Below are positions 10,171-59,546 of a DNA stretch of 64,000 bases, piece after piece. A program made the translations under genes and the position numbers. The notes under the pieces are model-generated. The model saw only the letters and a program-made list of their open reading frames with translations. It was not told the DNA's origin and did no database searches. The stretch's first letter is position 1, and each line of letters opens with the position of its first letter. The stretch comes from Planctomycetota bacterium (lineage in GTDB: Bacteria > Planctomycetota > GCA-002687715 > CAIWVZ01): the NCBI GenBank assembly GCA_044222185.1, contig JBGANV010000012.1:1-64000 (forward strand), given 5' to 3'.

Positions 10171-12429
10171 TCACAGCGAATCGGGATAGCGGGCCCACGT
10201 CAGCCGGAAGCCCGTCGGCGACGCCGGGTCGAGATAGACGGCCTGAACCGTGATGTCGATTCCCAGAGGCGGCGACGGAGCGACGAAGCCCGCGAACGTC
10301 AGCGTGCTCGTGCCACCGGTGGTCGTCGGCGTCGATGGGAACGCGAAGTTGGCTGCGGGCCCAAAGATGCCGAGACCATCGAGGATCGGGATGAGCGTGG
10401 CGACGTCCAGGCTCAGCACCATGGGCGCGGCGGGCGATGGCCACGGTGTTTGCACGCTCGGAGCGCCGAGACTGAGCGACATCGTGACGGGCGACCCCGG
10501 CGTTCCGCCTTCGAGCCGCACCGCATAGGGCGCACCCGGCGGTGGCGCGAGGGGAACACGGATGATCGTGCCACGGTTCGTCCCGCTGCCGACCACCAGC
10601 GCCATCGTGTTGGACAGGTGCGGCCCTGGGTTCTGAACGTCGATGGCGACGCCGCCGAGGAAGAGCGTGCCCGCGATCTGAGGACTGATGACGCAGTTCA
10701 TGAGCGTGGATCCGAGCCACGTCGACCCGATGAGTTGACCGTCGGCGAAGACTTGCGCGCCCGCGGCAAAGTCATGCCCGTGGATCTGCACCAACACCGG
10801 CGCGGACGACGGCGTCAACGGCGCCATCGACGGCGGCGTGAGACTCGTGATGACGGGAGTCGCGAGGAGGAACGTCGACGGCGCCGTCGTGCCGCCGCCT
10901 GGCGTAGGATTCGTCACGGTGACGGCGATCGGACCCTCGGCTTCCGTGAGAGTTGCCGGGACTTGCGCGGTGAGGTGCGTGGCGTCGACGAGCGTGGACG
11001 GCACGACCGTCCCGTTCCAGCGCACGGTCGACTGCTGAACGAATCCCGTTCCGGTGATCGCGACCGCGAGCGGACCGGACCCCGATAGCGCCTGCGACGG
11101 ACTGAGGCTCGCGAGCGTGGGCGTGGGAAACGCGACTTGCGAGACGCCGACGCCGAACGAGCCGTAGGTCTGCAGCGGTTCACCGTGCGTCAGCACGACG
11201 AACGCATGCACACCGGGGTTCATGGCCACGGGAAAACTGGTCGAGATTCCGAGCGCATTCGGCGACCACCGTGCCAGCGCCTGCTGCGGCCCCATCCACT
11301 CGCCGTCCGACGACGGCCCGAACACCACCACCTCGATCGACGACGTCCCGCCGTTGTACGGAATGAAGTCCGTGCTCAGCGTGTAGAGGCCCGCCTGCGT
11401 CACCTGGAACTCGAGCACCTCGACCGGATCCGTGGGCGTCGCTCCGAGTTGTGCCATGGCACCTCCGAACGGCACGTTGAGGAGTCCGACGCGGTGCCTT
11501 GCGCGAACGGTCGTCGCCGGTCCGCCGCCGTTCGTCGCGAGCCCGGTCACCGTCGACGGCGCGCCGTGACGCCCGTCCGATGCGACGATCGCGGGCAGGC
11601 TGCCGGACGTCGATCCCGCAGCGCTTCCCATGGCGAGATTCCAGTTCGCCGTCGATCCCAGTGCCACGACGTTCCAACGGTTCGCCACTGGCGTGACCGC
11701 GAACGGGAAGCATGTCGTCGTCAGCGTCGACGCGTTGGACGAAGACACCGGAACCGGCGCACCCCCGCAGCTCACGGTGATCGAGAGCGCGGCCGCGGCA
11801 CCGGCCGACGTCGGCTTGCGGAAGACGGCGATCGCGTGCGTTCCGACTCCGAGGTTGTAAGTCCCGGCAACGCCGACGGGGAACTCGCCCGCACTGGCCG
11901 CCCGCGGTCTCCACGTCGCATTCGATCCCGCCTCGAATACGCAGTAGCGCAGCGTGGAATCCTGCGCGTCGACGCGGATCCCGAAGTTGTATCCCGCCGT
12001 CACGGTGAACTGGAACAGCGCCATCGGCACGGCCGCTGGCAGTTGCTGCGTGTAAGTCGACCCGATGGCGAACGCGGGAAGCTGGATCGCCGACGTGCGT
12101 GCGAAGATGGCGTTCGCCGTGCCGCCGGCTCGCGTGATCGAGCCGGTGAGCAGCGGGGCCGCACCGAGCGTCCCGTTGGAGACGAGGCACGCGCCGCCAT
12201 CGGGCTGATTGAGCGAGAGCGCGGTGCCGGCCCCCAGGTCCCAGTTGGACGAGGAGAAGAGCCCATAGGCGTTCCACACTCCGGGCGTCGTCGCCGTCTG
12301 GAACGAATTCGTCGCGCACGACACGATGACTGGCGCCGAACCCAGCGTCCCGAGCGGGCACTGCCCATCGAGGGTCCCGCTCCCGAGGAGCGCCGACAGG
12401 AACGCGAGCGATTGCGTGGTGAGTTTCAC
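10171..12429 (-). CDS. Secreted protein with two IPT/TIG-like domains and the shared C-terminal domain
   Basis: GTG start with GGGAGG RBS and a signal peptide. PTLASLSPS...ITGTGF...VRWNG...VTNPTPGGG and PVITSLTP...IHGHDF are IPT/TIG-like. Confidence 0.82.
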   Translation of the reverse strand: MKLTTQSLAFLSALLGSGTLDGQCPLGTLGSAPVIVSCATNSFQTATTPGVWNAYGLFSSSNWDLGAGTALSLNQPDGGACLVSNGTLGAAPLLTGSITRAGGTANAIFARTSAIQLPAFAIGSTYTQQLPAAVPMALFQFTVTAGYNFGIRVDAQDSTLRYCVFEAGSNATWRPRAASAGEFPVGVAGTYNLGVGTHAIAVFRKPTSAGAAAALSITVSCGGAPVPVSSSNASTLTTTCFPFAVTPVANRWNVVALGSTANWNLAMGSAAGSTSGSLPAIVASDGRHGAPSTVTGLATNGGGPATTVRARHRVGLLNVPFGGAMAQLGATPTDPVEVLEFQVTQAGLYTLSTDFIPYNGGTSSIEVVVFGPSSDGEWMGPQQALARWSPNALGISTSFPVAMNPGVHAFVVLTHGEPLQTYGSFGVGVSQVAFPTPTLASLSPSQALSGSGPLAVAITGTGFVQQSTVRWNGTVVPSTLVDATHLTAQVPATLTEAEGPIAVTVTNPTPGGGTTAPSTFLLATPVITSLTPPSMAPLTPSSAPVLVQIHGHDFAAGAQVFADGQLIGSTWLGSTLMNCVISPQIAGTLFLGGVAIDVQNPGPHLSNTMALVVGSGTNRGTIIRVPLAPPPGAPYAVRLEGGTPGSPVTMSLSLGAPSVQTPWPSPAAPMVLSLDVATLIPILDGLGIFGPAANFAFPSTPTTTGGTSTLTFAGFVAPSPPLGIDITVQAVYLDPASPTGFRLTWARYPDSL

Positions 12430-12599: not shown

Positions 12600-13166
12600 A
12601 TGACAGATGGTTCGGAACACGACATCGAGGCGCTGATCGCCGCCATGAAGCGAGGCGACGGAGCCGCGCGCGAGGCGTTGTTCCGCGCGGTCTACGACCG
12701 CGTGAAGGCGATCGCGGCCGGGGCGCTTCGAGCCCGGAGGCCCGGGGATTCGCTGCAGCCGACCGTCCTCGCCCACGAAGCCCTCGAGAGGTTGCTGCCC
12801 GAGCGCAACCTCGCCGATCGGGCCCACCTGCTGGCCCTCGCCGCGACGGCCACGCAGCAGATCATCGTCGACCATGCCCGCCGGAGGCTGGCCCAAAAGC
12901 GAGGCGGCGCATTCGAGCGGGTGACGCTCGCATCGTTGCCCGGCACGCCCTCGGCTGCGCCGGTCGACGCTCTCGACATCCACGAGGCCATCGAAGAGCT
13001 CTCCCGACTCGACTCCCGCCAGGCCGAGATCGTCCGGTTGCGGTTCTTCGGCGCACTCGAAGGCCAGGAGATCGCCACCGTCCTGGAGATCTCCGAGAGC
13101 ACCGTCGATCGCGAATGGCGGGCCGCGCGTGCGTGGCTCAAGGTCCGACTCGCCGATCGTGGCTGA
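12600..13166 (+). CDS. ECF sigma factor, TIGR02999 (Sig-70_X6)-type
   Basis: SLQPTVLAHEAL, IIVDHARRRLAQKRGG and region 4 IVRLRFFGAL...EIATVLEISESTVDREWRAARAWL. Confidence 0.92.
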   Translation: MTDGSEHDIEALIAAMKRGDGAAREALFRAVYDRVKAIAAGALRARRPGDSLQPTVLAHEALERLLPERNLADRAHLLALAATATQQIIVDHARRRLAQKRGGAFERVTLASLPGTPSAAPVDALDIHEAIEELSRLDSRQAEIVRLRFFGALEGQEIATVLEISESTVDREWRAARAWLKVRLADRG

Positions 13167-15824: not shown

Positions 15825-15945
15825 CGCAACTGTCGGTCGCGTGCTCGCGAGATGGGACTCATCAGGTTTGGCGTGCGTGATGGACGGATGACGCGGCGCC
15901 GGCATCGGACGCGGCTCGCGCGGCGCGGGATCCTACCGCGAGTTA

Positions 15946-18527: not shown

Positions 18528-19349
18528 ATGAACAAGACGCAGTCGACTTTCGCCCGTACCAACTCCGTGCCGAGATTCGCCGCGGGCGCGGCGCTTCTTT
18601 GTGCTTCTCTCCTCGCTCAGGACCTCTCAGTCACCGTGTCGCCGAACCCCGCGCCGCTCGGCGCGACGATCACGGTGACGGCTCAGGATGCGTCTGGCCT
18701 CGGGCTCTACACCCCGTTCGGATGCCTGATCTCTTCGATCCGGTCAGGGACGCCGGGCGGGCCGACCGTCCGCGTCTTTCCGTGCACGTTCCTCGGGGTC
18801 GCGATTCCGCCTTGCCCGGGCGCCGCTGTCCGCACGGGCACATGGAATCAGTCCGTGACCGGAGGCACCGCAGCGCCGGGACTGTATTGGATCGAGATCC
18901 AGAAGTCCGTGGGCCCGTTCGGCGCCATCACGACGGAATGGCACAGCGTCACGATCGATACGGCCGTGCCGTCGGTGCCCGTGCTCTCCGCGGTCAACAC
19001 CCCGACGTGGGGAAACGTGTTCCAGATGGCCGTGAACGCTCCGTCGCACCCGTCGGAGACGTACGTCGTTGCGATGTCGCTCACGACGAACACCGGCCTC
19101 CTCGTCTCGCCCGGCGTCTTCCTCAGCCTCGACCTCGATGCGTTGTTCTTCCTCTCGTTCCCGACGCCGGATCCGATCCTCTTTGCAAACTTCCAGGGCG
19201 TGCTCGATTCCAACGGCGCCGCGACGGGGATCGGGATCAACTTCCCGAACGTCCCGCTCGGCTGCATACCGCTTCACGCGCAGGTCGCGACGGTCGACAG
19301 CTTCGCCAACGTGGCGCTGAGCAATGACCTCCACTTCACCGTTCGGTGA
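18528..19349 (+). CDS. Secreted hypothetical protein (Ig-like N-domain) with the shared C-terminal domain
   Basis: Signal peptide ...ASLLA|QD, VTVSPNPAPLG, and C-terminus FQGVLDSNG...FPNVPLG..LHAQV...LSNDLHFTVR. Confidence 0.8.
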   Translation: MNKTQSTFARTNSVPRFAAGAALLCASLLAQDLSVTVSPNPAPLGATITVTAQDASGLGLYTPFGCLISSIRSGTPGGPTVRVFPCTFLGVAIPPCPGAAVRTGTWNQSVTGGTAAPGLYWIEIQKSVGPFGAITTEWHSVTIDTAVPSVPVLSAVNTPTWGNVFQMAVNAPSHPSETYVVAMSLTTNTGLLVSPGVFLSLDLDALFFLSFPTPDPILFANFQGVLDSNGAATGIGINFPNVPLGCIPLHAQVATVDSFANVALSNDLHFTVR

Positions 19350-21885: not shown

Positions 21886-21892
21886 TCGCCGC

Positions 21893-22573
21893 TGCGCGGA
21901 GCGCCAGGCTTCGAGCCTGGCCGGACCGGGCGGGCTCTGCCCGCCCGCGGGTCCCGCAGGGTGCGTGGTTCGCTGCAACGGCAGCGGACTGCACGTCCGC
22001 GATCGACATGTCGGACGCCGCGTCGAGGGAACGATGTCGGTCGCCGAACCGGCAGGGCTGGAGCCCTGCCAACCGGCCGCGTGGAACGCGGCGCTCCGCC
22101 GAATGCGACCGCACGGTGAAAACGAGTTTGCGCGGAGCGCCAGGCTTCGAGCCTGGCCGGACCGGGCGGGCTCTGCCCGCCCGCGGGTCCCGCGGAGTGC
22201 GTGGTTCGCTGCAACGTCAGCGGACCGCACGTCCGCGATCGACATGTCGGACGCCGCGTCGAGGGAACGGTGTCGGTCGCCGAACCGGCAGGGCTGGAGC
22301 CCTGCCAACCGGCCGCGCGGAACGCGGCGCTGCGTCGAATGCGACCGCGCGGCGTAAACGAGTTTGCGCGGAGCGCCAGGCTTCGAGCCTGGCCGGACCG
22401 GGCGGGCTCTGCCCGCCCGCGGGTTCCGCAGGGTGCGTGGTTCGCTGCAACGTCAGCGGACCGCACGTCCGCGATCGAGGCGCCGGACACCTGCGCGAGG
22501 GAACGGTGTCGGTCGCCGAACCGGCAGGGCTGGAGCCCTGCCAACCGGCCGCGCGGAACGCGGCGCTCCGCCG
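21893..22573. repeat. Three tandem 236-bp REPIN/BIME-like units
   Basis: Units start at 21893, 22129 and 22365. Each is bracketed by inverted GGAGCGCC...GGCGCT(C/G)C and holds several hairpins. The array lies between convergent genes. Confidence 0.92.
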
Positions 22574-22590: not shown

Positions 22591-25395
22591 TCAGGGTTGG
22601 ATCGTGATCTTCAGCGCTGGCGTCGCGGCGAGGCCCTGCGAGCCGCAGGCGTCGGCGAAGAACGCCTGGCACCAGAAGTTGACACCGACCAGCGATGCCA
22701 CGTTCGGGATGCCGCCCCCGACGACGCCGCGGCCCGCGGAGTCCGCCGCGAGGTCGAGCGTCACGAACGGTCCCGGTCCGAGGTTGATGAGCACGTTCAC
22801 ACCGAACACGGAGAAGTTGGACGGACCCAGGCCGAATGCCAGCAGGCCACCGGCTCCCGGTTGCACGTTCTCCATCACGAGCGCGAACTCGGTGTTGTTG
22901 ACTTTCGGCTCCGAGTTGCCGGTGAGCGTCAGGTTGCCGTAGCAGCCGGCCGAAGACGCGCCCGAGTTCGTGAGTCCCTCGTCACCGTTGCGCGTGCCGT
23001 CGAGGTCGCGGTCGATCCCGATGCGGATGCCAGATCCGGGTGGAACGGCCATGAGCGTGAGCCACGCGGCGCCAGATGCCACCTGCGCCCGCAGGTTCGT
23101 CCAGGTGATGTTCGTCTCGGCGGACCGATCGGATCGGAACGACTGCGTTGCCGGGTCCCAGTACCAGCTGCGCGGCGCGGAGTTCAGCGTGCCCTCGGCG
23201 ACGAGGTCACAGTTGCCCAGCGTGACCTGCGCCGTCAGCAGGGTGAAGTCCGTCGCGACGGCCGTCGATGCTGCGTTGAGGCTGGTGACCGTTCGCGAAT
23301 ACCCGACTATGGGCTTCGATCCGGTCTCCATGCAGAGCAGGAACGATCCGACGTTCAGTCGGTTCGTGAGCTGCCCCGCGCCCGCCAGAGTGCCGAAGAA
23401 CCCCGCCGAGTGCACGTTGTTGAGCGTGTCACCAGATCCCTCGTGGTTGAAGCCGAATCCCGCCGTCGACGGTGCGCCGCGCTGGAATCCGAGTTTCTCG
23501 TACGTGAACCGGAGCTGCGGCACCTTCATGTTCTGGGGTTGGAGCGTCTGGGCCGTGGTGAGGATCGATCGGTTCGTCGTCGCCGTTCCGGCGTGGCAAT
23601 CCACACACCGTAGGCCGTTCACGCCACCGCCGGACAAGACGTTCGTCGTGAAGAACGTCTGCCCTGCCGCCGGGCTGCCCTGTTGGAGCGTTGCGGGCAG
23701 GGAATTGTCGAGCCCGCGGTTGGGGTTCGGCGGGAATTGGATCGTCCCGACGTAGCCGCTGAAGTCGATCAGGTCCGGCGGCGTGAGCTGGTTGCCGCCG
23801 AGGAGGCCCTGGAATGCGACGTTGAATGCGTTCATGTCCAGCCGATCCCCGCGCCAGTGAAGAGGAGTCGCGCCGGTGATGCCCTTCAGCGGCTGAGTCG
23901 TCATCGGTCCCTTCATGGGATGCATCTGGTAGCTGCTCGGCTGCCCGGCCGCTGGAAACGGGTTCGCGACGGTGAGCATGTTCCCGCCCGGATCTCCCAG
24001 GTCCCATGCGATGTGGTCCCAGTTCGCATCCACGTGGCAGGAGGCGCAAGACATCGTGCCGTTCGCCGACAGCTTGGCGTCGTAGAGGAATCCGCGGCCC
24101 TCGCGCGTCTGCAGAGTCTCGGGGCTCCCCACGGCGAGCTTGCGCTCGGACAGCACGGTGTTGTTGCCCGTGTCGATGGTCTGGACCGTCTGGCTCAGTC
24201 GGTTCAGCACGTAAAGCCGTGCCTCGATCGGGTGCAGGGCGAGCCCGCGCGGGCCCTTCTTGGTGCGCGGGTTGGTCGTCGGACCAGCCGGGCCGAGATC
24301 GATGCGAGCCGTGACCGCCCCGTTCGGCGCGACGATCCCGATTCGGTCCGTGCCGAGCGCTGCGACGTAGAGCTGTGTACCGGCCGCGTTCCAGATGACG
24401 TCCGTCGGCGACGCGAGCGCCGAGCTGAGCGACGCGTTGTCCGGGAAGAGCGTGTAGTTCGTGGACGGGTTCAGGTCGAACGGCGTGACGGTGGCAGGTG
24501 CGCTTCCGACGGCCACGCGCGTGACGCGGTTGTCGACCACGTGCCCCTTCAGCACCGGCTCGAAGAACGTCAGGTTTCGCGCCTCGGTGTTCGCGACCCA
24601 AAGGTTCCCCGTCCCCGGTTGGACGGCGATTCCGAAGTTCATCGTCCCGACGCCGCTGTAGTTCGTCGTGACCACGTACTGGTTCGCGTCGATCTGGACG
24701 ACGTCGTTGTCGGGGAGCGTGAAGTTGATCTGCGCCGCGAACGCGGGGTTCGTGATGGAGACGACACGGCCGACGACGGGAGGCGTCGGCAGGGCCGTGT
24801 TCGTCGGCGGCGACTGGGGCGGCGCCGTCCCGAACGGGATGGTCGTCGTTCCGTTACCCGATTCCGTGACGACGACGTAGACGGCCGAGCCGTCGGGCTT
24901 CACCGCGAGGGCCCGCGGATCCTCACCGAAGATTGGGATGCTCGCGACGAGTCCGTGCGTGCTGAGGTCGTAGACGTTCACGAGGTTGGACTGAGACACG
25001 CTGACGAAGGCCCGAAGCGGCGAGCCCGCGAACACCACGTCGGCGGGCTCGTCCTTGACGTAGATCGTGTCCGTCACGACGCCGAGCGCGAGCGAGATGA
25101 TGCTCACGCTGTCGCTCAGGTGGTTGACCACCCAGATCTCGTCCGAGCTCCAAGCCGCCACGGAGACGGGCTCCATGCCGACGGCGATCTCCTTCAGGAG
25201 CACCGGGGACGACGGGTTGGCGAGCGAGAAGACCGAGAGCCGGTTGTCGGGCGTGTTCACCGCGAGCAGCGTCATCCCGTCGGGCGTGACGGCGATGGGG
25301 TGCGTCTGCGGGCTCTCATAGTTGACGTAGGACTGACCGAGGACGCAGCTCGCGAGGACCGCGAGGAACACGATCGTTGTTTGAGACCGTCGCAT
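22591..25395 (-). CDS. Secreted YncE-like beta-propeller fused to a di-heme cytochrome c (CCP/MauG-like) domain, with the shared C-terminal domain
   Basis: Signal peptide, YVTN-like repeats (IAVGMEPVSV, WVVNHLSDSVSII), heme motifs CASCH and CVDCH, LHWRGDR and KVPQLR. Confidence 0.87.
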   Translation of the reverse strand: MRRSQTTIVFLAVLASCVLGQSYVNYESPQTHPIAVTPDGMTLLAVNTPDNRLSVFSLANPSSPVLLKEIAVGMEPVSVAAWSSDEIWVVNHLSDSVSIISLALGVVTDTIYVKDEPADVVFAGSPLRAFVSVSQSNLVNVYDLSTHGLVASIPIFGEDPRALAVKPDGSAVYVVVTESGNGTTTIPFGTAPPQSPPTNTALPTPPVVGRVVSITNPAFAAQINFTLPDNDVVQIDANQYVVTTNYSGVGTMNFGIAVQPGTGNLWVANTEARNLTFFEPVLKGHVVDNRVTRVAVGSAPATVTPFDLNPSTNYTLFPDNASLSSALASPTDVIWNAAGTQLYVAALGTDRIGIVAPNGAVTARIDLGPAGPTTNPRTKKGPRGLALHPIEARLYVLNRLSQTVQTIDTGNNTVLSERKLAVGSPETLQTREGRGFLYDAKLSANGTMSCASCHVDANWDHIAWDLGDPGGNMLTVANPFPAAGQPSSYQMHPMKGPMTTQPLKGITGATPLHWRGDRLDMNAFNVAFQGLLGGNQLTPPDLIDFSGYVGTIQFPPNPNRGLDNSLPATLQQGSPAAGQTFFTTNVLSGGGVNGLRCVDCHAGTATTNRSILTTAQTLQPQNMKVPQLRFTYEKLGFQRGAPSTAGFGFNHEGSGDTLNNVHSAGFFGTLAGAGQLTNRLNVGSFLLCMETGSKPIVGYSRTVTSLNAASTAVATDFTLLTAQVTLGNCDLVAEGTLNSAPRSWYWDPATQSFRSDRSAETNITWTNLRAQVASGAAWLTLMAVPPGSGIRIGIDRDLDGTRNGDEGLTNSGASSAGCYGNLTLTGNSEPKVNNTEFALVMENVQPGAGGLLAFGLGPSNFSVFGVNVLINLGPGPFVTLDLAADSAGRGVVGGGIPNVASLVGVNFWCQAFFADACGSQGLAATPALKITIQP

Positions 25396-30088: not shown

Positions 30089-30202
30089 GGTCGCATTCCG
30101 TCTCCCTCGAACGACCGCCGCGCGGTCGGGGGGGCGTTCGCCCTCGGGCGCAGTGGCCGGGCGCCGGCGTGCGCCGGCACCCACGTCACGCCATTCGATC
30201 GA

Positions 30203-31249
30203 TCACGGGATCGTGTACGTCACGGCCGGTGTCGCGCCGATCGGCACGGTCGAGCCCGCCGGTGCCGCCACGACGACGGAGTAGAGCGTTAGGCCGGGGG
30301 GGAGTCCACCGAATGGGCCGAGCTGGAATCCGCCGCAGCCGTCGAGCGGGCCGACGAACGGGAAACCGGCGTTGATCTCCGCCGCGAGGTCGTTGATGCC
30401 GATGCTGAGGCCGTAGAACCAGCCGTTGGGGAACGAACCCGCGTTGAAGGTGATCGCGAGGAAGTAGAGCCCGCCGGAAGGCCCGCCGGCGATGTTCGCC
30501 TGGAGCGATCCGCTACCGAGCGGCGACGTCCACGTATGCGTGAACGCCGTGCCGCCGATGCTGAGGGTCGTGCCGTCCGAGACGGAGGGAGTGTTGTAGC
30601 TCCATCCGGCGCTGACGAGACCGTTGCCCGGCGCGCCATTGATGTACCCGATGGTCGCACTCGCTCCACCGGTGACGCCCGTGCCGCTCACTTCGAACGT
30701 GGCATCGGGGTAGAGAATCTGGATCGCCGGGCTGCCGCATCCCGGATTGGAGAAGACCTGGATCTCGAACGTGATCAGACCGTACGTCGGGCTCGGGTAA
30801 AAGTGGTCGATGTCCTTCCACATGATGTAGAGGACGCCACTCAGCTCTTGCCACCAGATCGTCGTGTTCGGGTTGGCGATCGGGGTGTAGAGATCGTCCC
30901 AGAATGCGCAGACCGCCGCAGTGCACGCCGGAAGTCCGACTGACGCCGGGGTCGTGGCCGAGGTGATCGGGCCGCCGTTGCCGAACGTGACGTAGGCCCC
31001 CGCGCTCGCACCCGAAAGCGCGACGCCGTTGCTCGAGACCGCGATCGCGCCCGCCGGGAACAGACTGTTACCGATGGTGCTCGTGAACGTGTGCATCGTG
31101 TCGTCACCGGCGCCGATGAACGCGGTCCCGCCCGTCAGCGAGATGTCGACGAACGAGCCAGGCAATGCACTGTTGAACGACTGCGCGCTCGCCGCGGAGG
31201 CGAGGACGGTGAGGAAGAACGCCACGAGATGCATGGATGTTCGGGTCAC
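30203..31249 (-). CDS. Secreted nidogen/NIDO-like protein with the shared C-terminal domain
   Basis: Signal peptide ...AASA|Q, then GDD...VSSNG...AFWDDL...TFEIQVF...SATIG. Confidence 0.78.
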   Translation of the reverse strand: MTRTSMHLVAFFLTVLASAASAQSFNSALPGSFVDISLTGGTAFIGAGDDTMHTFTSTIGNSLFPAGAIAVSSNGVALSGASAGAYVTFGNGGPITSATTPASVGLPACTAAVCAFWDDLYTPIANPNTTIWWQELSGVLYIMWKDIDHFYPSPTYGLITFEIQVFSNPGCGSPAIQILYPDATFEVSGTGVTGGASATIGYINGAPGNGLVSAGWSYNTPSVSDGTTLSIGGTAFTHTWTSPLGSGSLQANIAGGPSGGLYFLAITFNAGSFPNGWFYGLSIGINDLAAEINAGFPFVGPLDGCGGFQLGPFGGLPPGLTLYSVVVAAPAGSTVPIGATPAVTYTIP

Positions 31250-35399: not shown

Positions 35400-36728
35400 A
35401 TGAGTTCAGCACGCACCCACCTGACGATTTCGGCGGCTCTGGTCTCTCTGACGTTCCTCGCGACGGTCGGGACTGCACAGCAGACGGTCGTCATTCCGAA
35501 CGGCATGGCTGCTGCCGAGGGGAACTCGAGCAACGCGTTCCCGTGGGGGCGCGGTGGCGCGGGTCTGCGCATCCAGACGGTCTACGACAGCACGAACTTC
35601 ACTGCACAGAACGTCACGTTCCCGGTGATCATCTCCCGGCTGCGCTACCGCCCGAATGCCGCCACCGCGACGACGTGGGTGAACACCTCGTACCAGACAT
35701 CCACGGTGCGCCTGTCGACGTCGCCCAACGATCAAGCGGCGCTGAGCACCGCGTCGTTCGCCGCGAACACCGGCGCGGACGTGCAGGTCGTGTTCTCGGG
35801 ACCCATGACGTGGGCCGCCGGTTCGTCGGTTGCGCCCGGTCCGGCGCCCTTCCTCATCGACGTCCCGTTCTCGACCCCGTTCTTCTATGACCCGAACCTC
35901 GGTGACCTCAACATCGACACCGACCTCCCGATCCAGACGTTCAGTGGGACGAATCTCCAACTCGACGTGCAAACGACGGGGTCCCTCAGCGCACGCGCAT
36001 ACGTCAGCACGGGATACCCGAATCCGCCGTTGACGATCAACGCCAATCACGGCGTCGTGGTCGAGGTCACCTACGTTCCAGCGGCGGGCATTCACGCTGC
36101 GTTCAGCGCGACTCCGACGTCTGGCCCGGCTGCGCTCAACGTGCAGTTCACGGACACGACCTACACCGACGCGCTCGGCGGCGTCACCGGATGGGCCTGG
36201 GACCTCGATGGCGACAACGTCATCGACTCGACCGCCCAGAACCCGAGCTTCACCTACCTCGTGCCGGGTCTGTACTCGGTCACGCTCACGGCGTCGGATC
36301 CGATCAACGGCTCCAGCACGCTCACGCGGACGAACTTCATCAACGTGGCCCAGTACGTGTTCGATGCGCAGACGTCCGGAGGCGGCGTCGGCGACCTCGT
36401 CATCCACGGCGTTCCGAAGGTCGGTGTCCCCACCGCTGCGACGGGATTCATGTTCCTCTCGTTCACGCCGGCTGCGACCGTCGGCGGCGGCCCGTTCCTC
36501 GGCATCCTTCCTGACGGGACGACTTTCGGGATCCTCGCGACGCCAGCGGCCGTCGGCGACATCCTGCACTGGGTGAACACGCCCGGGCTGTTCCCGAATG
36601 TGCCGTTTGCCGTCCCCGCCGGCACGTTGGCGTTCCTCGCGGGCCAGACCGTCGACTTCGTTCAGGCCGACCTGACGCCGGGGATGCTGCTCGCGAACGT
36701 GTCGAACGTCGACCGCGTGACGTTCTGA
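35400..36728 (+). CDS. Secreted PKD-domain protein with the shared C-terminal domain
   Basis: Signal peptide ...VGTA|Q and PKD motif FSATPTSGPAALNVQFTD...WAWDLDGD...QNPSFTY..PGLYSVTLT. Confidence 0.87.
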   Translation: MSSARTHLTISAALVSLTFLATVGTAQQTVVIPNGMAAAEGNSSNAFPWGRGGAGLRIQTVYDSTNFTAQNVTFPVIISRLRYRPNAATATTWVNTSYQTSTVRLSTSPNDQAALSTASFAANTGADVQVVFSGPMTWAAGSSVAPGPAPFLIDVPFSTPFFYDPNLGDLNIDTDLPIQTFSGTNLQLDVQTTGSLSARAYVSTGYPNPPLTINANHGVVVEVTYVPAAGIHAAFSATPTSGPAALNVQFTDTTYTDALGGVTGWAWDLDGDNVIDSTAQNPSFTYLVPGLYSVTLTASDPINGSSTLTRTNFINVAQYVFDAQTSGGGVGDLVIHGVPKVGVPTAATGFMFLSFTPAATVGGGPFLGILPDGTTFGILATPAAVGDILHWVNTPGLFPNVPFAVPAGTLAFLAGQTVDFVQADLTPGMLLANVSNVDRVTF

Positions 36729-37030: not shown

Positions 37031-37129
37031 GGCGCTGCGGGCACGGATCCAGCGGCGGCGGCATTTACACTCGCCGCGACGCGCGCCACAGGGCCCTCCC
37101 GGCGGTTCGCCCACGAACGGATTCCCACC

Positions 37130-40057
37130 ATGGTCAAAACTCTCTCGGCAGCTTGGCCGCTCCTGCGGGTGCTCGTCCTCGTCGCACTCGGGTGCGTCGA
37201 CCTCTACGGTCAATGCGGGCAGAACTGGACGACACGCGTCGGGTCGATCGGGCTCCTGAACCGTCCCGCGTACGTGGCGGCGACGTGGTCGAACGGCGGC
37301 ACGCCGGACCTCTACATCGCCGGCGAGTTCTCGGCGGCCGGCACGGTCGGCTCTCGCGGGCTGGTTCGGTTCAACGGTACGTCGTTCTCGCCGGTGGGGC
37401 CGAGCGGCGTTTCGGGCGTCGCAGCGCTCGTCAGCCACGATGACGGCTCCGGTTCCTCCCTGTTCATCGGCGGCACGTTCGCGACCGCCGGCGGAGTCGC
37501 CGCAGAGAACGTGGCTCGGTGGAACGGGACGAGCTTTGCACCGCTGGGCACCGGCATGGTCGGCGCGGGAGTGCAGAGCCTCGCCGTCTTCGACGACGGC
37601 ACGGGCCCTGCGCTGTACGCCGGCGGCTCGTTCTTCCTGGCTGGTGGCGTGGCGTGCAACTCCCTTGCGCGTTGGAACGGCAGCAGCTGGTCCTCCGTGG
37701 GAGGCGGAGTGACGCTGCAGGGTGTCACCGGAAGCGTCTCCGCGATGGCCGCGTTCGATGATGGCTCCGGCCCTGCGCTCTACGTCGCGGGGGCATTCGA
37801 CCAGGCGGGCGGGACGACCGTCGCGAACATCGCGCGGTGGAACGGATCGGCGTGGAGCCCCGCAGGAGCTGGGGTCAACGGACAGATCCTGACCATGACC
37901 CCGCACGACGACGGGAGTGGGGCCGCGCTTTACGTCGGGGGCCTCTTCAGCACTGCGGGCGCGGTTGCAGTATCGAGCCTCGCGCAGTGGCGGTCGACCG
38001 GATGGAGTGCCGTCGGCACCCAGGTGACGTCCGGGACCGTGATCGTCAGAAGTCTGCTTTCGTTCAACGACGGGACCACGACGAAGCTCTACGCCGGCGG
38101 GGATCTCTACCCCCTCGCTGGGCGGAACCTTGCCGTGTGGAACGGGACGGCTTGGTCCGCACCCCCGGGCGCCAGCACTCTGGACCACTTCCCGTCCGCG
38201 CTCGCGGCTTTCAACGACGGCCGCGGACCGGCGTTCTATTCCGTCGGTGGGACGCCGAGCCTTTCGGGCCTTCCGTGGCCCTGTCGGCTGTTTCGATTCC
38301 ACGCAGGCGCGTTGCTGCCCGTGATTGGCGGCATCGACGGTGTGGTGAACGCCCTGTGCGTCGCCAACTTCGGGGCGGGACCACGTCTTTACGCTGGCGG
38401 TACATTCAACCTTGCTGGCGACTCGGCGTGTCACGGGATCGCGATCTGGAATGGGAGCGCATGGGGCGCGCTCGGTGGTGGCGTCGGTCCGTTCAGCCAG
38501 ACGAACGTGGCCGGGGTGAATTGCCTCCTGGCGTTCGATGATGGCTCGGGCATCGCGCTGTATGCGGGCGGTTCGTTCACGTCCATGGGTGGAGCCCCGG
38601 CCGCGAACGTCGCGCGCTGGAACGGGACCGCCTGGTCGCCCGTCGGCACCGGATTCGACGGTCCCGTATTTGCGCTCGCCGTCTACGACTCGGGGACGGG
38701 GCCACGGCTGTACGCAGCGGGTCAGTTCACCGCGGCGGGGGCCGCCCCGGCTGCCCGGCTCGCCAGCTGGAACGGAGTGAGCTGGCAGGCCGTGGGCTCC
38801 GGCCTGTCGGGCGGACTCCTCGTTCCGACCGTGTACGCAATGCAGGTCTTCGACGACGGTGGGGGACCACGTCTCTACGTCGGAGGGTCGTTCACTTCCG
38901 CAGGCGGGATTCCAGCGCAGAACATCGCGCGATGGGATGGATCGACTTTCAGTCCGGTCGGCGCGGGGGTCAACGGGTTCACGTTGTCGCCGTGCGTGAG
39001 GGCCATGACGGTCTTCGACGACGGTGGGGGACCGGCGCTTTTCGTTGGCGGAGCGATCGAGCAGGCTGGCGGGAGCCCGGCGAGTCGGATCGCCCGGTGG
39101 AGGAACGGGGCCTGGCAGTCCGTCGGTGACGGCTGGTTCAACGCCCCGCCCGCGCAGCCGAACGGCGTGATCTACGCGCTCGCCGTCTACGACGACGGCC
39201 GCGGCCCCGCGCTCTACGCCGGTGGGATCGCCTCCACGAGCAACAATCGCCGCTTGAACCACGTGGCGCGCCTCACGGGGAATTCGTGGGAGCCGCTGGC
39301 CGCTGGCGTCCAAACGCCATCCGGGTGCGACGTCCGATCCCTCCTGCCGTTCGACGACGGATCCGGTCCCGGGCTCTTCGTCGGCGGCACGTTTCTCGAT
39401 GCGTCGGGAGCGGAAGCGCATTCGATTGCGCGTTGGACCGCGCCGGGGGCCCCAGCGATCCTTCAAGGGCCAGCGACGACGGCGTGGATCCACAATCAGC
39501 CGGCGAGCCTGCGCGTCGACGCGGCGGGTGCGCCCCCATTGACGTACCAGTGGCGGAAGAACGCGTCGCCGATCCCCGGTGCGACGACCGCGAGTTTCTC
39601 GATTCCGTCGGCCGCACCCGGGGATGCGGCCTCCTACGACGTCATCGTTGCCAATGCGTGCGGATCCGTCGTGTCGAACTCGGTCGCCGTCGACGTCCTG
39701 GCGTGCACGCTCGCACTCACGCAGCCAACGGGTTCCGGATCCCTTCGCGTCGCGAACGCGTTCGGCAAACCGGGCACGCCGTATTTCACGGCGCTGACGA
39801 TCGGGGCGGAGTTCCCCACGATCTCCTGGAGTGCGTTGGCCGTCGGCCCCAACGAGCTCCTCGCGGAGTTCGTCACCCAGGCGCCCCCGTTCGTCGGCGT
39901 CTTCGACAATCTCGGGCAGTCGAACTTCGTCCTCGGTGCCGGCGCCATCCCGCCACAGTTCCTGCTGATTCCGCTCCGCGGCGTGACCGTGACCTACGAT
40001 CCGGCCACGCTGCAGGTCACGGGCCACTCGGCGACGGCCATTCGATTCCTGCAGTGA
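37130..40057 (+). CDS. Secreted double beta-propeller repeat protein with Ig domain and the shared C-terminal domain
   Basis: About 14 repeats of xDDGxGPALYxGGxF...ARWNGxxWxxxG, then Ig-like PPLTYQWRKN...DAASYDVIVANACGSV. Confidence 0.88.
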   Translation: MVKTLSAAWPLLRVLVLVALGCVDLYGQCGQNWTTRVGSIGLLNRPAYVAATWSNGGTPDLYIAGEFSAAGTVGSRGLVRFNGTSFSPVGPSGVSGVAALVSHDDGSGSSLFIGGTFATAGGVAAENVARWNGTSFAPLGTGMVGAGVQSLAVFDDGTGPALYAGGSFFLAGGVACNSLARWNGSSWSSVGGGVTLQGVTGSVSAMAAFDDGSGPALYVAGAFDQAGGTTVANIARWNGSAWSPAGAGVNGQILTMTPHDDGSGAALYVGGLFSTAGAVAVSSLAQWRSTGWSAVGTQVTSGTVIVRSLLSFNDGTTTKLYAGGDLYPLAGRNLAVWNGTAWSAPPGASTLDHFPSALAAFNDGRGPAFYSVGGTPSLSGLPWPCRLFRFHAGALLPVIGGIDGVVNALCVANFGAGPRLYAGGTFNLAGDSACHGIAIWNGSAWGALGGGVGPFSQTNVAGVNCLLAFDDGSGIALYAGGSFTSMGGAPAANVARWNGTAWSPVGTGFDGPVFALAVYDSGTGPRLYAAGQFTAAGAAPAARLASWNGVSWQAVGSGLSGGLLVPTVYAMQVFDDGGGPRLYVGGSFTSAGGIPAQNIARWDGSTFSPVGAGVNGFTLSPCVRAMTVFDDGGGPALFVGGAIEQAGGSPASRIARWRNGAWQSVGDGWFNAPPAQPNGVIYALAVYDDGRGPALYAGGIASTSNNRRLNHVARLTGNSWEPLAAGVQTPSGCDVRSLLPFDDGSGPGLFVGGTFLDASGAEAHSIARWTAPGAPAILQGPATTAWIHNQPASLRVDAAGAPPLTYQWRKNASPIPGATTASFSIPSAAPGDAASYDVIVANACGSVVSNSVAVDVLACTLALTQPTGSGSLRVANAFGKPGTPYFTALTIGAEFPTISWSALAVGPNELLAEFVTQAPPFVGVFDNLGQSNFVLGAGAIPPQFLLIPLRGVTVTYDPATLQVTGHSATAIRFLQ

Positions 40058-42226: not shown

Positions 42227-42314
42227 GAGTGCTGCGAGCCTACCACGCCGACGGTAGGATCGGCCCGCGGATCTCGGTGGGACGGTCGGCGCGGCTCCGC
42301 TCGAGGAGGAAGGC

Positions 42315-45137: not shown

Positions 45138-45188
45138 GGCCCGCGGCTCCCGGCGCGCGTGCGACGACGGCGCGCGTCGTGGGACCGT

Positions 45189-48074: not shown

Positions 48075-48430
48075 CACGGGTTGAATCCCCGCGAACGCCG
48101 TCGGTGGTTCAACACCGGTCCGGGGGGCGATCGTCACCGATGTCCCGGGGCATCAGTGATCCGTAGAAACCTCTGCGCCGCGACGAATCCGCAGACGAGA
48201 GCGAACGTCACACGCGCATGAACGGGCCTGGGCGTCGGCACGGTCCACTCCTTCCCGGCCAGGTCGGACCGAGCTGCGAGCGTAGTTCCTCGCGATTCGA
48301 AACGCAACGCCCATCCCGGTCGGGAACCACTGACCGTCGAGTCGCGCGTTCGACATCGCGCCGCGACGTGAGCATCACCGCCGCCGTGATAGCCTCCGCA
48401 TCGGCTCATGCGCCGGTGCAGGAGGTTCCC

Positions 48431-49012: not shown

Positions 49013-50416
49013 TCACTCGACGCCCTTGAACCCGATCCGCATGCAGCAGAGCGACGAGATCGCGGGGATCGACGCGTCCAGCGCCTGGGCGTAGAGCAGC
49101 GAGCCGTTCAGGGCGGCCGGCATTGGCGAGCCCAGGTTCAACTGAATGGGAGATCCGGCGGACGCGAAGGTGACGGCCCCCGGTGCATACGGGTGGAGGA
49201 GCAGCATCACACCGGGTGCGACGAGCACCCCGGGGATGTCGACGGGGCTGACATAGACGGTCAAGATGTTCGCCGTCGGCGGCGTGAGGTCCCAGCGCAA
49301 GACGCTGTCGTTGTTGTCGGCGTAGACGTTGGGGTTGAGTGAGAGCCTCCCGAGCGTCGTTGCGCCAGCCACGTCGAACGTGCGCTCGTACGTTTCCGTG
49401 AGCCACGTCACCGCCTGGGCGTCGGGGATCGGCGCGACCGCGATCGGCGTTCCCGTCGTGTTGTTGGCCGCGTTCGCATAGGCCGTGATCGCGCCGTCGC
49501 TACGCAGCACGTAGTAGTCGCCGTGGTTGTCCGCGGTCACGGAGATCGGCAGCGTCGCGAGCCCGCCACGCAGGTCGACGCTGAACCAGGAACCCGTCGC
49601 ATTCATCCGCAGCACGAATGTCGCTCCGGGAGGCATGCCGCTGAGCTGCAGGTACGGGTTGAACCCGCACACGACGAGGTCGAACCCGCCGAGACACCCC
49701 GCGGCCGTGCATGGATTCCAGCTCAGGTCGGTGATGAAGGACGGGCCGACGGCGGAGAACGGGTCGGCAAGCGCTCCGGTCACCGCGAAGCTCGACGAGA
49801 GCATCACGATCGGGCCGTTCGTCGTCGCGACGAAGATGGTCCCGTCCGTCTGGCGGATCGCCATCGCCGACATGTCGCCCACGCCGGTGACCGAGACCCA
49901 CCCTCCGGCGGGCACGAACGTGCCGGGCGTGTATCGGCGGAATGCGGCCTGCGGTGGGGTGAGGAGCGAGTCGAAGGCGGCCGCGACGATCTGGCCACCG
50001 CTGATCGTGCGATCGAACGCGACGTCGCGGATGAGTCGGCCCCCCCCAAGCTGAATGGCGCACGGGCCGAGGCACGCGCCGACGCGGGGGATCACGAAGG
50101 GGCTGGTGAACTGGTCGATCTGCGTCTGCACGACGCCGCCCGCGAGGCTGGCACGAACGGCGTACACCTCGCCGTGGAGGGAGTTCTGGCACGACTTCAC
50201 CGTCGCGCCGCCCGGCTGGTTCCCAGGTCCGAAGACGACCCAGGTTCCTGGCATGGGGCCCGTTCCGCGGAGGGTGTAGTAGTCCGTGCTCCCGCCGGCG
50301 CCGAGGGCCGCGACCGAGAGATCGATGGTCTGCGAGTGGACGGCTCCCCCGAAGGCGACGACGAGCGCGAGGACGAGCCGGATTGATGCGTGACGACGTG
50401 CGGATTGCAGTCTCAT
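49013..50416 (-). CDS. Secreted beta-propeller-like hypothetical protein with the shared C-terminal domain
   Basis: AAGGAG RBS, signal peptide ...AVHS|Q and C-terminus MPAALNGSLLYAQALD...SS. Confidence 0.78.
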   Translation of the reverse strand: MRLQSARRHASIRLVLALVVAFGGAVHSQTIDLSVAALGAGGSTDYYTLRGTGPMPGTWVVFGPGNQPGGATVKSCQNSLHGEVYAVRASLAGGVVQTQIDQFTSPFVIPRVGACLGPCAIQLGGGRLIRDVAFDRTISGGQIVAAAFDSLLTPPQAAFRRYTPGTFVPAGGWVSVTGVGDMSAMAIRQTDGTIFVATTNGPIVMLSSSFAVTGALADPFSAVGPSFITDLSWNPCTAAGCLGGFDLVVCGFNPYLQLSGMPPGATFVLRMNATGSWFSVDLRGGLATLPISVTADNHGDYYVLRSDGAITAYANAANNTTGTPIAVAPIPDAQAVTWLTETYERTFDVAGATTLGRLSLNPNVYADNNDSVLRWDLTPPTANILTVYVSPVDIPGVLVAPGVMLLLHPYAPGAVTFASAGSPIQLNLGSPMPAALNGSLLYAQALDASIPAISSLCCMRIGFKGVE

Positions 50417-52204: not shown

Positions 52205-52625
52205 CGCGCCGGAGCGCCAGGCTTCGCCTGGCCGGACCGCGAGGCCTCCCGGCCTCGCGTGAACGTCGACGGCTCATCCTCACCAACCACCCCCGCATTC
52301 AATCGCGCACGGACCGACCGGACATGCGGCGCGTCGACGTCCGGTCGCCACTTCCGGCAGGGCGAAGCCCTGCCATCCGGCCGCGCTGGAGCGCGGCGCT
52401 CCTCCGATCGCGAAGCCGGAGCGCCAGGCTTTGCCTGGCCGGACCGATTCGAGGCGAGATCATCCCCCGATTCCGTGACGCTGTCACGAGAGTGAGCGGG
52501 ATGCGCGGCCAGCAATGGAACGTTCTCGGCGACCCGTAGCCGGCGCCACCGATGTCGGGCTGGACCGCCATCCGGAGCGCCAGACGCTTTGCCCGGCTGG
52601 ATCGCGAGGCCTCCGGACTTGCCCG
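52205..52625. repeat. REP-like cluster (forward units at 52211, 52418 and degenerate 52574; inverted unit ~52356-52403)
   Basis: Same GGAGCGCCAGGC-loop-GCCTGGCCGGACC and GGCAGGGC-loop-GCCCTGCC hairpins as the other clusters; lies between convergent genes. Confidence 0.85.
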
Positions 52626-57263: not shown

Positions 57264-59546
57264 TCACATGATGCGGATGACGGCCGTGTCCGAGACGCGG
57301 AACTGGCACGCCGCGCCCGAGAAGTCGGCACCCTGGATTGCGAAGTCCACACCGACGAGCGCCCCGTCGGCGGGGATCGTTCCGCTGAGAGTCGCGCCGT
57401 TGATCACGATGGGCGAGTTCACGATGTCCACGCCGAGCAGGCAGCTGCCGCAGAGTGGCGTCGGAGCGATCGGCGCACCGATCACGATGAGCGGATTGAC
57501 GCCGGCGTTCGGCATCGAAATCGTCAACTGCTGGCCGATGATCAACTGCCCGGACATCGCAAGCCCCAGGCTTCCGCAACCCGTCGCCAGGCTCGCAAGG
57601 CCGCCGCTCGCGGCGCGCGCCAGGTATCGCGCCGAGCCGACGCCTCGCGGGTTCGAGCCCCAGTCGAACACGATTTCCGTCTCGACGCCGCGTTCACCGC
57701 CATCGAACTTCGACGCGATCGCAGGGGCGGCTTCGATGGAGAACGACGTGGAGACGTCCGCGTTCGCCTCGCTCACCCCGAAGACGGTTCCTCCGATGAC
57801 GTTCAACGTCGTGGCGTGGAGGTCGTAGTCGGGCGAGCCTGGCGTCCACAGCTCGGAGTATGCGATCGTGTACGTCGCACCGGTGCAGGTCGCCGTCGGC
57901 CTGTGACGGTCGTAGTCGAGCGAACCCTCGATCAACGCGAGGTTGTTGGACCCGGTCACGAACGACTGTCCCTGCATCAGCTGATAGCCCACGTGGGACA
58001 CGGCCCCGACCACTTCATAGGTCACGAGCCACTGCGACGCCCCGAGCGTCGGATCGGAGAGGGTCGTCACGCTGGGTTCGATGCTGTCGATGGGAGTCGT
58101 GTTGACGGGGAATGGCGATGTGACGACCGTGGCGTCCCAGGAGAGCCGCGCGCCGACGAGATCGTGCTGCGCGCCGAGCTGACGCTGCCAGACGAGCTGC
58201 CAGAACTGCGAGTAGGAACCACCGATCCCGTCGGACTTGGAGATCGCCGGATGCTGGTCGCGGTCGCTGCCGAGGTTCGAGATCGCCAGGACTCCCGTGA
58301 ACGATGCACCCGTCGAGGTGACGAGACGGGCATGGATGTCCTCGTCCGTCGCGGTGTAGTCCCGCTGCCACGCCACGCAGTAGTAGGTCGGCGAGAGCGT
58401 GCTGGGGTCACCACCGACGACGGGCTCGTGCTTGTCGCCACCCTCGGCGCCGCTGATCTGGAACTGCGCACCGCTCGACGGCGGCAGGCCCGACTCGACG
58501 GTGCGTCCCCAGATCTGCCGTGCCGGTGCGGCGCCCCGGGCTCCGACCACGAGGAACTGCGTTGCGACGCGGTTCGCTGCGACGCGGGGGTGCGTCCAAT
58601 CGAGCACGGACGAATCGATGATCGTGAACGATCCCGACTGAACGACGCCGGTATAGCCGAGGAAGTAGGCGTACACGTCGTGGTCGACGGCCGAATACGT
58701 CCGCGTGAAGACGACGAGGAAGTGGTTCATTCCGGTCTCGAATGCCACGTCCGAGTCGTAGGCGTCGTCGCCCGTGGAGTAGACGAGTTGCGTCGCGAGA
58801 CCCGGGTCGACCGTGAGCGGGTAGCGAGCGGATTCGAGGAACGTCTCGGGAACGGTGATGACGAGGCAATCACCCTGGATGCGGGGCGGGAGCGTCGACG
58901 CGCGACCGTCGGCATCGACGACGGTGGCGAGTCCATAATGCATGCCTCCGAAGGGGCCGGTGAACGCGATGCCGTCGTCGGTCTCGACGGCCGCGAGCGT
59001 CGTCGTCGCGCGGATGCGAAGCTCCAACGCACCGGCCGCCAGCGGCTGCGCGAGCGTGAACGACTGCTCGACGCCGTGGAGGTCTACGTCGTAGATCTCC
59101 TGGACGAGGCCGCGGTCGAAGGTCACGCGGTGTCCCGTGCGCCGAGGCTCGACGTCGGCGGCAAAACGGGCCTTGCGCGCTCCGGCGCGGATCGAGTCGA
59201 GGCGGAACGAGACGGGCATGCTCTGCGGCGCTGCCGGGCCGAGCGCGGGGTGAAACGCGGCGCCTGTCGCGTCGAAGGCCATCTTGTAGTCCTGGCCCAC
59301 GGCCCACGTCGTCGACCCGTCGATGTCGAACATGACGTTGGTCTGGATAGGGCCGGGCGATCGTCCGTCGACGTTGGTTTTTGGCGCCCGCGGCTGGGCC
59401 ACGGGGACGGACGGATCGTCGGCGGCGCCGATGCCGCTCGGGAGCGGCGTGCCGGCGGTCTTGGTGTCGAGGGGGGATTGCGCCGCGGTCATTGCGGCAA
59501 GAAGGCAGACGAGGAGGGCGATCGGAATCGAGCGGATCGGTTTCAT
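57264..59546 (-). CDS. Secreted repeat protein (beta-propeller-like WQR/DI/P.I repeats) with the shared C-terminal domain
   Basis: Signal peptide ...MTAA|Q, N-domain EIYDVDLHGVEQSF...YPLTVDP, repeats VAWQRDY..DEDIHARLV, and C-terminus GCG...IPADGALVGVDFAIQG. Confidence 0.82.
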   Translation of the reverse strand: MKPIRSIPIALLVCLLAAMTAAQSPLDTKTAGTPLPSGIGAADDPSVPVAQPRAPKTNVDGRSPGPIQTNVMFDIDGSTTWAVGQDYKMAFDATGAAFHPALGPAAPQSMPVSFRLDSIRAGARKARFAADVEPRRTGHRVTFDRGLVQEIYDVDLHGVEQSFTLAQPLAAGALELRIRATTTLAAVETDDGIAFTGPFGGMHYGLATVVDADGRASTLPPRIQGDCLVITVPETFLESARYPLTVDPGLATQLVYSTGDDAYDSDVAFETGMNHFLVVFTRTYSAVDHDVYAYFLGYTGVVQSGSFTIIDSSVLDWTHPRVAANRVATQFLVVGARGAAPARQIWGRTVESGLPPSSGAQFQISGAEGGDKHEPVVGGDPSTLSPTYYCVAWQRDYTATDEDIHARLVTSTGASFTGVLAISNLGSDRDQHPAISKSDGIGGSYSQFWQLVWQRQLGAQHDLVGARLSWDATVVTSPFPVNTTPIDSIEPSVTTLSDPTLGASQWLVTYEVVGAVSHVGYQLMQGQSFVTGSNNLALIEGSLDYDRHRPTATCTGATYTIAYSELWTPGSPDYDLHATTLNVIGGTVFGVSEANADVSTSFSIEAAPAIASKFDGGERGVETEIVFDWGSNPRGVGSARYLARAASGGLASLATGCGSLGLAMSGQLIIGQQLTISMPNAGVNPLIVIGAPIAPTPLCGSCLLGVDIVNSPIVINGATLSGTIPADGALVGVDFAIQGADFSGAACQFRVSDTAVIRIM

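Follow-up and report, generated by a model that had tools for sequence, protein, structure and literature searches.

Modular end-tags on exported proteins are known in kind, and comparable handles led to the type IX secretion system (T9SS) and to the exosortases. How planctomycetes position their many exported enzymes and adhesin-like proteins within or upon an unusual envelope is, to our knowledge, little understood. The C-terminal domain (CTD) of T9SS cargo is presented in one account as a 3+4 immunoglobulin-like (Ig-like) sandwich (PMC11285876), and another describes the 'Q-rule', by which signal peptides expose a Gln, as specific to Bacteroidetes (PMC5837995). Here we analyse a stretch of 64,000 nucleotides, hereafter the window, which comprises positions 1–64000 of contig JBGANV010000012.1 of a Planctomycetota genome (7.08 Mb, 16 contigs, 93.8% complete, 68% G+C); G+C along the window is 62–71%. 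A preliminary description of the window had proposed that eight unrelated secreted proteins share a C-terminal domain, possibly a lineage-specific secretion or anchoring tag. Judged by profile comparison, seven of the eight tails form one superfamily of domains of ~110–125 amino acids (aa) with four subfamilies. We refer to this domain as the tag and to the genes by their first position in the window (g10171 and so on; Table 1).

The shared tail and its fold

When the last 140 aa of all eight proteins were compared pair by pair with BLASTP, one pair was significant, g30203 and g37130. Because direct comparison linked this pair alone, we widened the search to all open reading frames (ORFs) of the genome. 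With phmmer against 52,898 six-frame ORFs (≥70 aa), seven of the eight tails found strong paralogues through matches reaching the stop codon, with best non-self E-values of 1.6e-14 to 2.5e-59. Iterated searches with hidden Markov models (HMMs) settled on four subfamilies, A to D, and united g18528, g22591, g57264 and g10171. Matches ended ≤5 aa from the stop in 67/68, 47/48 and 71/72 cases for the C and D seeds, and in 48–181 of 63–221 cases for the A and B seeds.

Profile-profile comparison joined subfamilies A and B (probability 97.3%, E 2.6e-11), C and D (98.4%, E 9.3e-15), B and C (75.7%, E 2.4e-5) and B and D (55%, E 1.2e-4), with no direct signal for A against C or D. An alignment of 50 subfamily B tails (A1) and one of subfamilies C and D together (A3) matched over 107 columns end to end (85.4%, E 5.8e-6). 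The B–C profile alignments span 94–107 columns in register, and the cross-matches of the subfamily C HMM to g18528 and g22591 agree with them.

The tails are rich in G, A, P, L and V, and BLASTP among the eight is mostly insignificant, as would be expected if their likeness were an artefact of Gly/Ala/Pro-rich composition in a G+C-rich genome and the domain not real. We give this explanation almost no credence. Reversed ORFs produced 0 matches to the four HMMs at E≤1e-4, against 44, 218, 70 and 30 real ones; the real matches are in register and reach the stop codon; two tails give well-scored structure models (below); and 3,634 representatives among 1.84 billion protein clusters match at E≤1e-10. 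These controls refute the artefact for seven of the eight genes, and it is possible only for g49013.

The tail of g49013 is kept apart as a candidate. It resembles subfamily B in motif only (PAALNGSLLYAQALD; ...P-x-x-L-x-G-x-x-x-Y-x-Q-A-x-D). Its best HMM match, to subfamily B, scores E 0.021 when eight sequences are searched, and the hhalign probability is ≤1.4%. No paralogue was found by phmmer among the genome's ORFs, nor a homologue in a word-indexed collection of 5.8 billion proteins or in 22 genomes of the order. Thus the proposed sharing of a domain holds for seven of the eight proteins, g49013 being an orphan. The proposed P...L.G.....Q motif forms the conserved core in subfamilies A and B, and its Q is missing in C and D.

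The conserved core of A1 reads ...G.GC.G...P.L....P..G....L......S......C.L.......D..G.A....IP..P.L.G.....QA........(S/T)N, and the signature of subfamilies C and D is QP.G.GS...N..G.PG..YF.A.T....G.G...GL.I....L..Q...G..PF.G.LD..G. Subfamily B is divergent, with a mean column identity of 22%. At least two Cys occur in the last 125 aa of 83/198 copies of B, 5/37 of A, 19/63 of C and 1/26 of D. AlphaFold2 modelled the g22591 tail (subfamily B) as an all-beta sandwich (predicted local distance difference test, pLDDT, 91; predicted template-modelling score, pTM, 0.82) and the g37130 tail (subfamily C) as a beta sandwich with one inserted helix (pLDDT 82, pTM 0.75). The best match in a fold search was the MG domain of alpha2-macroglobulin (6tav; Z 9.2, root-mean-square deviation 2.9, 103 residues), followed by many Ig/FN3/MG-type domains and adhesin repeats at Z 6.5–8. 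Both models are Ig/FN3/MG-like sandwiches and share the entries 7s62, 8s3o, 2pn5, 8wm1, 9jtz and 3vh8, which is compatible with a common domain. Among the matches listed, no T9SS CTD or other specific family was prominent. The models thus suggest a self-folding Ig-like beta-sandwich of ~110–125 residues, with a Cys pair in a subset of copies.

No Pfam-A (2025) or NCBIfam 20.0 model covers the last ~120 residues of the eight genes or of 18 further tagged proteins, and a sequence profile search of the PDB returned nothing better than E 0.1 for A1 or A3. Moreover, we found no description of the domain in the open-access PMC and bioRxiv literature. The tag is a modular domain not described in Pfam, NCBIfam or PDB sequences, as had been supposed.

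Cargo, placement and distribution of the tag

All eight ORFs were confirmed at their coordinates, and every N-terminus is signal-peptide-like. Their passengers are unlike one another, four having Pfam or NCBIfam assignments and four no Pfam family, which upholds the proposal that unrelated passengers ride on signal-peptide-like proteins.

Genome-wide, 324 ORFs carry the domain ≤20 aa from the stop (A 37, B 198, C 63, D 26). They lie on 16/16 contigs at 1.3–9.2 per 100 kb; near the start of the contig on which the window lies, the density is about twice that of the genome (9.2 against ~4.6 per 100 kb). Their stop-to-stop lengths total 240,713 aa, or 10% of the genome, and 274 tagged ORFs are among the 3,954 that pass a codon-position G+C filter. 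By a home-made heuristic, other than SignalP, 295/324 have a signal-peptide-like N-terminus.

A second census, with HMMs trimmed to 125 aa and i-E≤1e-4, found the domain in 342 ORFs and two copies in none. It is C-terminal in 314 and elsewhere in 28, so the strictly C-terminal placement that had been expected fails in these 28. A script flagged 19 of these 28 copies as lying directly behind a signal-peptide-like segment, one copy being really near-C-terminal (32-aa tail). About 18 proteins have the order signal peptide, tag, passenger, and ~8 copies are internal or ambiguous. Eight proteins with an N-terminal tag were scanned for domains: Kelch propellers follow the tag in two, and the other six gave no clear Pfam family. 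Kelch passengers thus have the tag at their N-terminus in this genome and at their C-terminus in proteins elsewhere (below). Giant ORFs of 1,400–3,000 aa with endings such as ...RF(S/T)NL......P look like bearers of further divergent tag variants outside the 324 (four examples in Table 1). Because the HMMs miss the divergent tails of some giant ORFs, the tag counts are lower bounds.

The signal peptides mostly end in ...A-x-A followed by Gln (cleavage site A|Q). A small-x-small-Q pattern behind the hydrophobic core is found in 187/248 tagged ORFs (75%), against 4% for the same pattern with E and 8% with D. Among other ORFs with a hydrophobic N-terminal segment it occurs in 496/1,708 (29%), and Gln makes up 2.7% of residues overall. 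These Gln-exposing signal peptides resemble the Bacteroidetes Q-rule. The genome gave no match to a plant/Xanthomonas-type glutaminyl cyclase (PF05096); the M28-type enzyme was not searched for.

Beyond the genome, the A1 profile was run against the 1.84 billion cluster representatives and matched 26,318 at E≤1e-3, 3,634 at E≤1e-10 and none at 1e-30. In the best 150 of the 26,318, the match ends ≤5 residues from the C-terminus in 150/150; small-x-small-Q occurs in 51 of the 72 signal-peptide-like tagged proteins among them, some being the genome's own. We scanned the passengers of 92 of these 150, those of ~300 aa or longer, and found matrixin, trypsin, astacin, LamG, Kelch, RCC1, FG-GAP and beta-helix domains, as well as Ig, PPC, GEVED, DUF7948 and GBD_T9SS_assoc, with all listed best domain stretches upstream of the tag. 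Searches of word-indexed proteins, queried with a tagged protein, g49013 and A1, returned essentially the genome's own proteins only.

Within the phylum, the tag was detected at E≤1e-5 in 60/301 sampled Planctomycetota genomes, in an all-or-none fashion by family. Families f1 (3/3), f2 (5/5), f3 (6/6), f8 (7/7) and f25 (6/6) have it, and f7 (0/15), f15 (0/15), f24 (0/10) and f28 (0/10) are free of it. Deeper scoring gave 10 to 141 matches in single genomes. Ten named genomes were without the tag, namely one Planctomycetota metagenome-assembled genome and nine from other groups (Verrucomicrobiota, Cloacimonadota, Bacteroidota, Ignavibacteria, Balneolaceae, Chloroflexota, Nitrospirales, Achromatium and a cyanobacterium). 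The proposal of a lineage-specific domain is thus borne out, and all-or-none presence by family, with tens to >140 copies in the positive genomes, fits dependence on a clade-specific partner.

Table 1. Tag copies, related genes and other features. Positions are those of the window unless a contig (C) is given; paralogue E-values are from phmmer unless stated.
Feature	Position	Strand	Gene and context	Evidence
Tag, subfamily A	10174..10548	-	C-terminus of g10171 (10171-12519); TIG/'choice-of-anchor Z' (CoaZ) repeats (CoaZ_rpt_PGGG)	Best paralogue 5.6e-29, match reaches stop; HMM A 1.3e-44, HMM B 6.2e-13; NF058597 and PF01833 upstream of tag
Tag, subfamily B	18972..19346	+	C-terminus of g18528 (18528-19349); small protein, no Pfam family	Paralogue on same contig 3.7e-28; HMM B 6.6e-21, HMM C 2.4e-7
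Tag, subfamily B	22594..22968	-	C-terminus of g22591 (22591-25494, likely start near 25395); lactonase-type propeller and di-haem peroxidase-like part	Paralogue 1.6e-14; HMM B 2.2e-25, HMM C 2.7e-5
Tag, subfamily C	30206..30580	-	C-terminus of g30203 (30203-31249); no Pfam family; Gln-exposing N-terminus	BLASTP against g37130 tail 6.5e-13; paralogue 4.8e-36; HMM C 3.5e-35
Tag, subfamily D	36351..36725	+	C-terminus of g35400 (35400-36728); passenger includes PKD	Paralogue 3.3e-47; HMM D 6.2e-47, HMM C 3.4e-8
Tag, subfamily C	39680..40054	+	C-terminus of g37130 (37130-40057); Rax2-type propellers and Ig domain	Paralogue 2.5e-59; HMM C 1.6e-32
Tag, subfamily B with Cys pair	57267..57641	-	C-terminus of g57264 (57264-59546); no Pfam family; Gln-exposing N-terminus	Two paralogues 1.8e-36 and 5.4e-33; HMM B 3.9e-14
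Candidate tag	49016..49390	-	C-terminus of orphan g49013 (49013-50416); no Pfam family	Motif likeness alone
Further Gln-exposing N-terminus	28808-30184	-		
Further Gln-exposing N-terminus	42315-43709	+		
C25-like gene	40193-42712	-	Convergent to g37130; signal-peptide protein	Divergent Peptidase_C25 domain, PF01364 E 1e-12
Tagged C25 gene (L206)	C1:676846-679446	+	Signal peptide, Propeptide_C25, Peptidase_C25, CarboxypepD_reg, subfamily C tag	
Giant ORF, divergent tail	C15:383487-392564			
Giant ORF, divergent tail	C1:55957-61761			
Giant ORF, divergent tail	C1:1456787-1460995			
Giant ORF, divergent tail	C13:82368-88829			
Serine recombinase	2-1114	-	At window start	Resolvase and Recombinase domains
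ECF sigma factor, Planctomycete-type	12600-13166	+	Beside the kinase fusion below	PF07638
Ser/Thr kinase-FGE-sulfatase fusion	13191-15905	-		
Second kinase, fused to TPR repeats	60013-63378	-		
Three clustered proteins	42315-48137			Rich in CarboxypepD_reg domains
CarboxypepD_reg protein	45189-48137	-		Fused to ECF sigma factor N-terminus
Three tandem copies of a unit	21831-22573		Between helicase gene and g22591	Unit of ~236-271 nt
REP-like element	36741-37040		Downstream of g35400	G+C-rich, 59-145 nt, 92-98% identity
REP-like element	52210-52355		Near 52.2 kb	As above
REP-like element	59694-60014		Upstream of g57264	As above

What the tag may do

Our tentative reading, which we hold at somewhat less than even confidence, is that exported proteins dock on one shared partner in the envelope by means of a folded terminal tag. 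The proteins would be exported by Sec and their signal peptide cut, usually exposing an N-terminal Gln, and the folded tag would dock its passenger on a common envelope partner, be it a receptor, a scaffold or a site where an export route takes the protein over. In this way proteases, lectins, propellers and adhesin-like repeats would be held at, or delivered to, one location of the cell envelope. The ~18 tags that lie N-terminal of their passenger speak for docking or anchoring rather than for a signal dependent on a free C-terminus.

Homologous passengers offer a comparison of ends. In the present genome, subfamily A tags come next in order after CoaZ repeats. Ten CoaZ-repeat ORFs were read from genomes of the phylum that have no tag, and the tag HMMs match none of them (E>0.04). 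In three of the ten the C-terminus is a Gly-rich motif with Cys, then a hydrophobic transmembrane (TM) helix and a basic stretch (L195, L197, L202); in two it consists of dockerin-like repeats (L196, L198). The relatives' proteins thus end in anchors where those of this genome end in tags, and therefore the tag appears to sit where anchoring devices sit. This evidence is partial, because the other five of the ten carry no recognisable end module.

The fold would also suit a module with no sorting role at all, that is a lineage-expanded, generic Ig-like spacer, ligand or glycan binder or adhesion domain that has been shuffled to protein ends. Its structural matches are MG, FN3, Ig and adhesin repeats at Z 6.5–9.2; it occupies either terminus, with a few copies internal; no machinery was found; and its subfamilies are strongly divergent, as the column identity of B shows and as might be expected of a binder under diversifying pressure. 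Adhesin-type Ig domains are usually tandem and internal. The tag is present as a single copy in 342/342 ORFs and is nearly always terminal, it is common to enzymes of unrelated specificity, the same passengers end in anchors in relatives, and it is present or absent by whole family, at tens to hundreds of copies in a genome. One terminal copy per protein on hundreds of passengers in all-or-none clades argues against a spacer or adhesin repeat, and we regard a generic module as unlikely, if still deserving of real weight.

An outer-membrane export signal analogous to the T9SS CTD would differ from docking in that a translocon reads the folded tail and takes the cargo through the outer membrane, the tail then being cleaved or swapped for an anchor. 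Consistent with this, the tag is overwhelmingly C-terminal, both in the genome (314/342) and in the best 150 of the 26,318 matches elsewhere, and enzymes of a secreted type are among the cargo, for instance astacin, trypsin, matrixin and a gingipain-like C25 peptidase that has a propeptide. The models, with their generic Ig/FN3/MG matches, are Ig-like beta-sandwiches, as the CTD is in the account cited above (PMC11285876), and the signal peptides mostly expose Gln, as is described for T9SS-bearing Bacteroidota (PMC5837995). Moreover, the genome lacks an exosortase match, and PEP-CTERM also gave 0, with a silent control. However, ~18 copies stand at the N-terminus of the mature protein, and the domain exceeds the 72-position type-A CTD model. 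That model (TIGR04183) had 0 matches in the whole genome, whereas it retrieved 10 CTDs from the control, Daejeonella oryzae. Against these ten bona fide CTDs (alignment A4), A1 and A3 showed no profile similarity by hhalign (probability 0.05%, E 0.8). SprA, PorV and GldM had 0 matches in the 93.8%-complete genome, whereas Bacteroidota-type control genomes contained SprA in 4/4 and GldM in 3/4. With no match to the model, no profile similarity, none of these three components and working positive controls, identity with the T9SS CTD is ruled out. The C25 peptidases, considered as PorU-like candidates, show no co-occurrence with the tag (below). Taken together, these data make an export signal of this kind rather improbable.

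Besides the C25-like gene next to g37130, the genome encodes two further C25 proteins, one tagged and one without a tag. The tagged one (L206) is gingipain-like; it carries a subfamily C tag and is therefore a cargo. Its architecture mirrors that of a Porphyromonas T9SS cargo, but with the planctomycete tag. The nearest relatives of the C25 protein in the window belong to another family (f8; 53–60% identity over the full length), and none was found in 14 genomes of f1–f3, the families of its own order, which suggests that the gene was horizontally transferred.

Several observations weigh against the docking reading. Subfamilies C and D are joined to B by profile comparison at just 55–85% probability, and the Cys pair is present in just 83 of the 198 copies of B. 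The fold matches are generic, and MG/Ig/FN3-type domains of this sort are often plain spacers or binders. Half of the CoaZ-repeat ORFs from tag-free genomes, as noted, have no recognisable end module. The C25-like protein of the window is present in 12/301 genomes of the phylum and in 0/14 of f1–f3, and PF01364 occurs in 15/20 tag-positive and 12/20 tag-negative genomes; with this distribution we reject the C25 protein as a PorU-like, tag-processing sortase. Nothing obvious resembling a SprA-like barrel was seen among 63 non-tagged giant ORFs of ≥1300 aa, and DUF1559 (PF07596) gave no match, its control having no match anywhere. In sum, the search brought up neither a partner or receptor nor a peptidase or translocon, and none of the candidates examined tracks the tag; the co-occurring translocon or peptidase that had been anticipated did not come to light.

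Of the proposed lineage-specific secretion or anchoring tag, then, the domain itself stands, being real, modular and clade-limited, and its role stays provisional with no machinery that tracks it. We infer a sorting or anchoring role, which is well motivated, and with it a docking or anchoring function, the existence of a partner and a location at the cell surface or the periplasmic face.

Comparison with known systems

It is possible, if still doubtful, that much of the Planctomycetota has an undiscovered envelope sorting or display system, independent of T9SS and exosortases, with a folded Ig-like end-tag on 5–10% of coding capacity and coupled to a Bacteroidota-like Q-rule. If so, this would be a new protein-targeting pathway. 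One domain marks >300 proteins in a genome, has tens of thousands of metagenome relatives and is present by whole families. It offers a search key for cargo and a clean phylogenetic profile with which to look for the machinery, and a large block of environmental proteins now labelled 'hypothetical' would gain an annotation through it. A mere docking module would still delimit the proteome that these bacteria export or display at their surface; as an end-tag of a known kind, the tag could point to a new pathway.

Compared with the T9SS CTD of the Bacteroidota (TIGR04183; PF18962, Por_Secre_tail), the tag is alike in being a folded Ig-like C-terminal sandwich on unrelated signal-peptide proteins, in its large paralogous cargo sets, in some passenger types (C25 peptidases and the Pfam domain named GBD_T9SS_assoc) and in the Gln exposed by the signal peptides. 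It differs in size, ~110–125 aa against ~70–100 aa for the CTD, and in that some copies are N-terminal.

The tripartite signals (PEP-CTERM/exosortase, LPXTG/sortase and the Cys-containing Gly-rich tails) likewise mark many unrelated exported proteins, and the Gly-rich tails occupy the same place on homologous passengers of related genomes (L195, L197, L202). In contrast to these, the tag is a 120-aa folded domain without a TM helix or a basic tail; the tails of this genome end in the beta strands of a folded domain, with neither hydrophobic helix nor basic cluster. Exosortase (PF09721) had 0 matches in the genome, its control being positive in one genome, and PEP-CTERM (TIGR02595) also had 0, with a control that matched nowhere. 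Identity with an exosortase/PEP-CTERM signal is rejected on the absence of a TM helix with basic tail and on the exosortase search. The distinction that had been drawn from both the T9SS CTD and tails with a TM helix and basic end is thus supported, by the negative model and profile tests for the former and by the beta-strand ends for the latter.

Dockerins and SLH modules are also single terminal modules, mostly C- and sometimes N-terminal, on many secreted enzymes, and dockerin-like repeats hold the tag's place on the CoaZ-repeat proteins of tag-free relatives (L196, L198). No Pfam match to dockerin or SLH was found in 26 tagged proteins of the genome. Whereas a dockerin is a Ca-binding helical repeat that docks on cohesin, the tag is modelled as an all-beta sandwich, and no cohesin-like partner is known for it. 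By its logic the tag is closest to the T9SS CTD and by its behaviour to dockerin/SLH-type modules, with homology to none of the systems tested.

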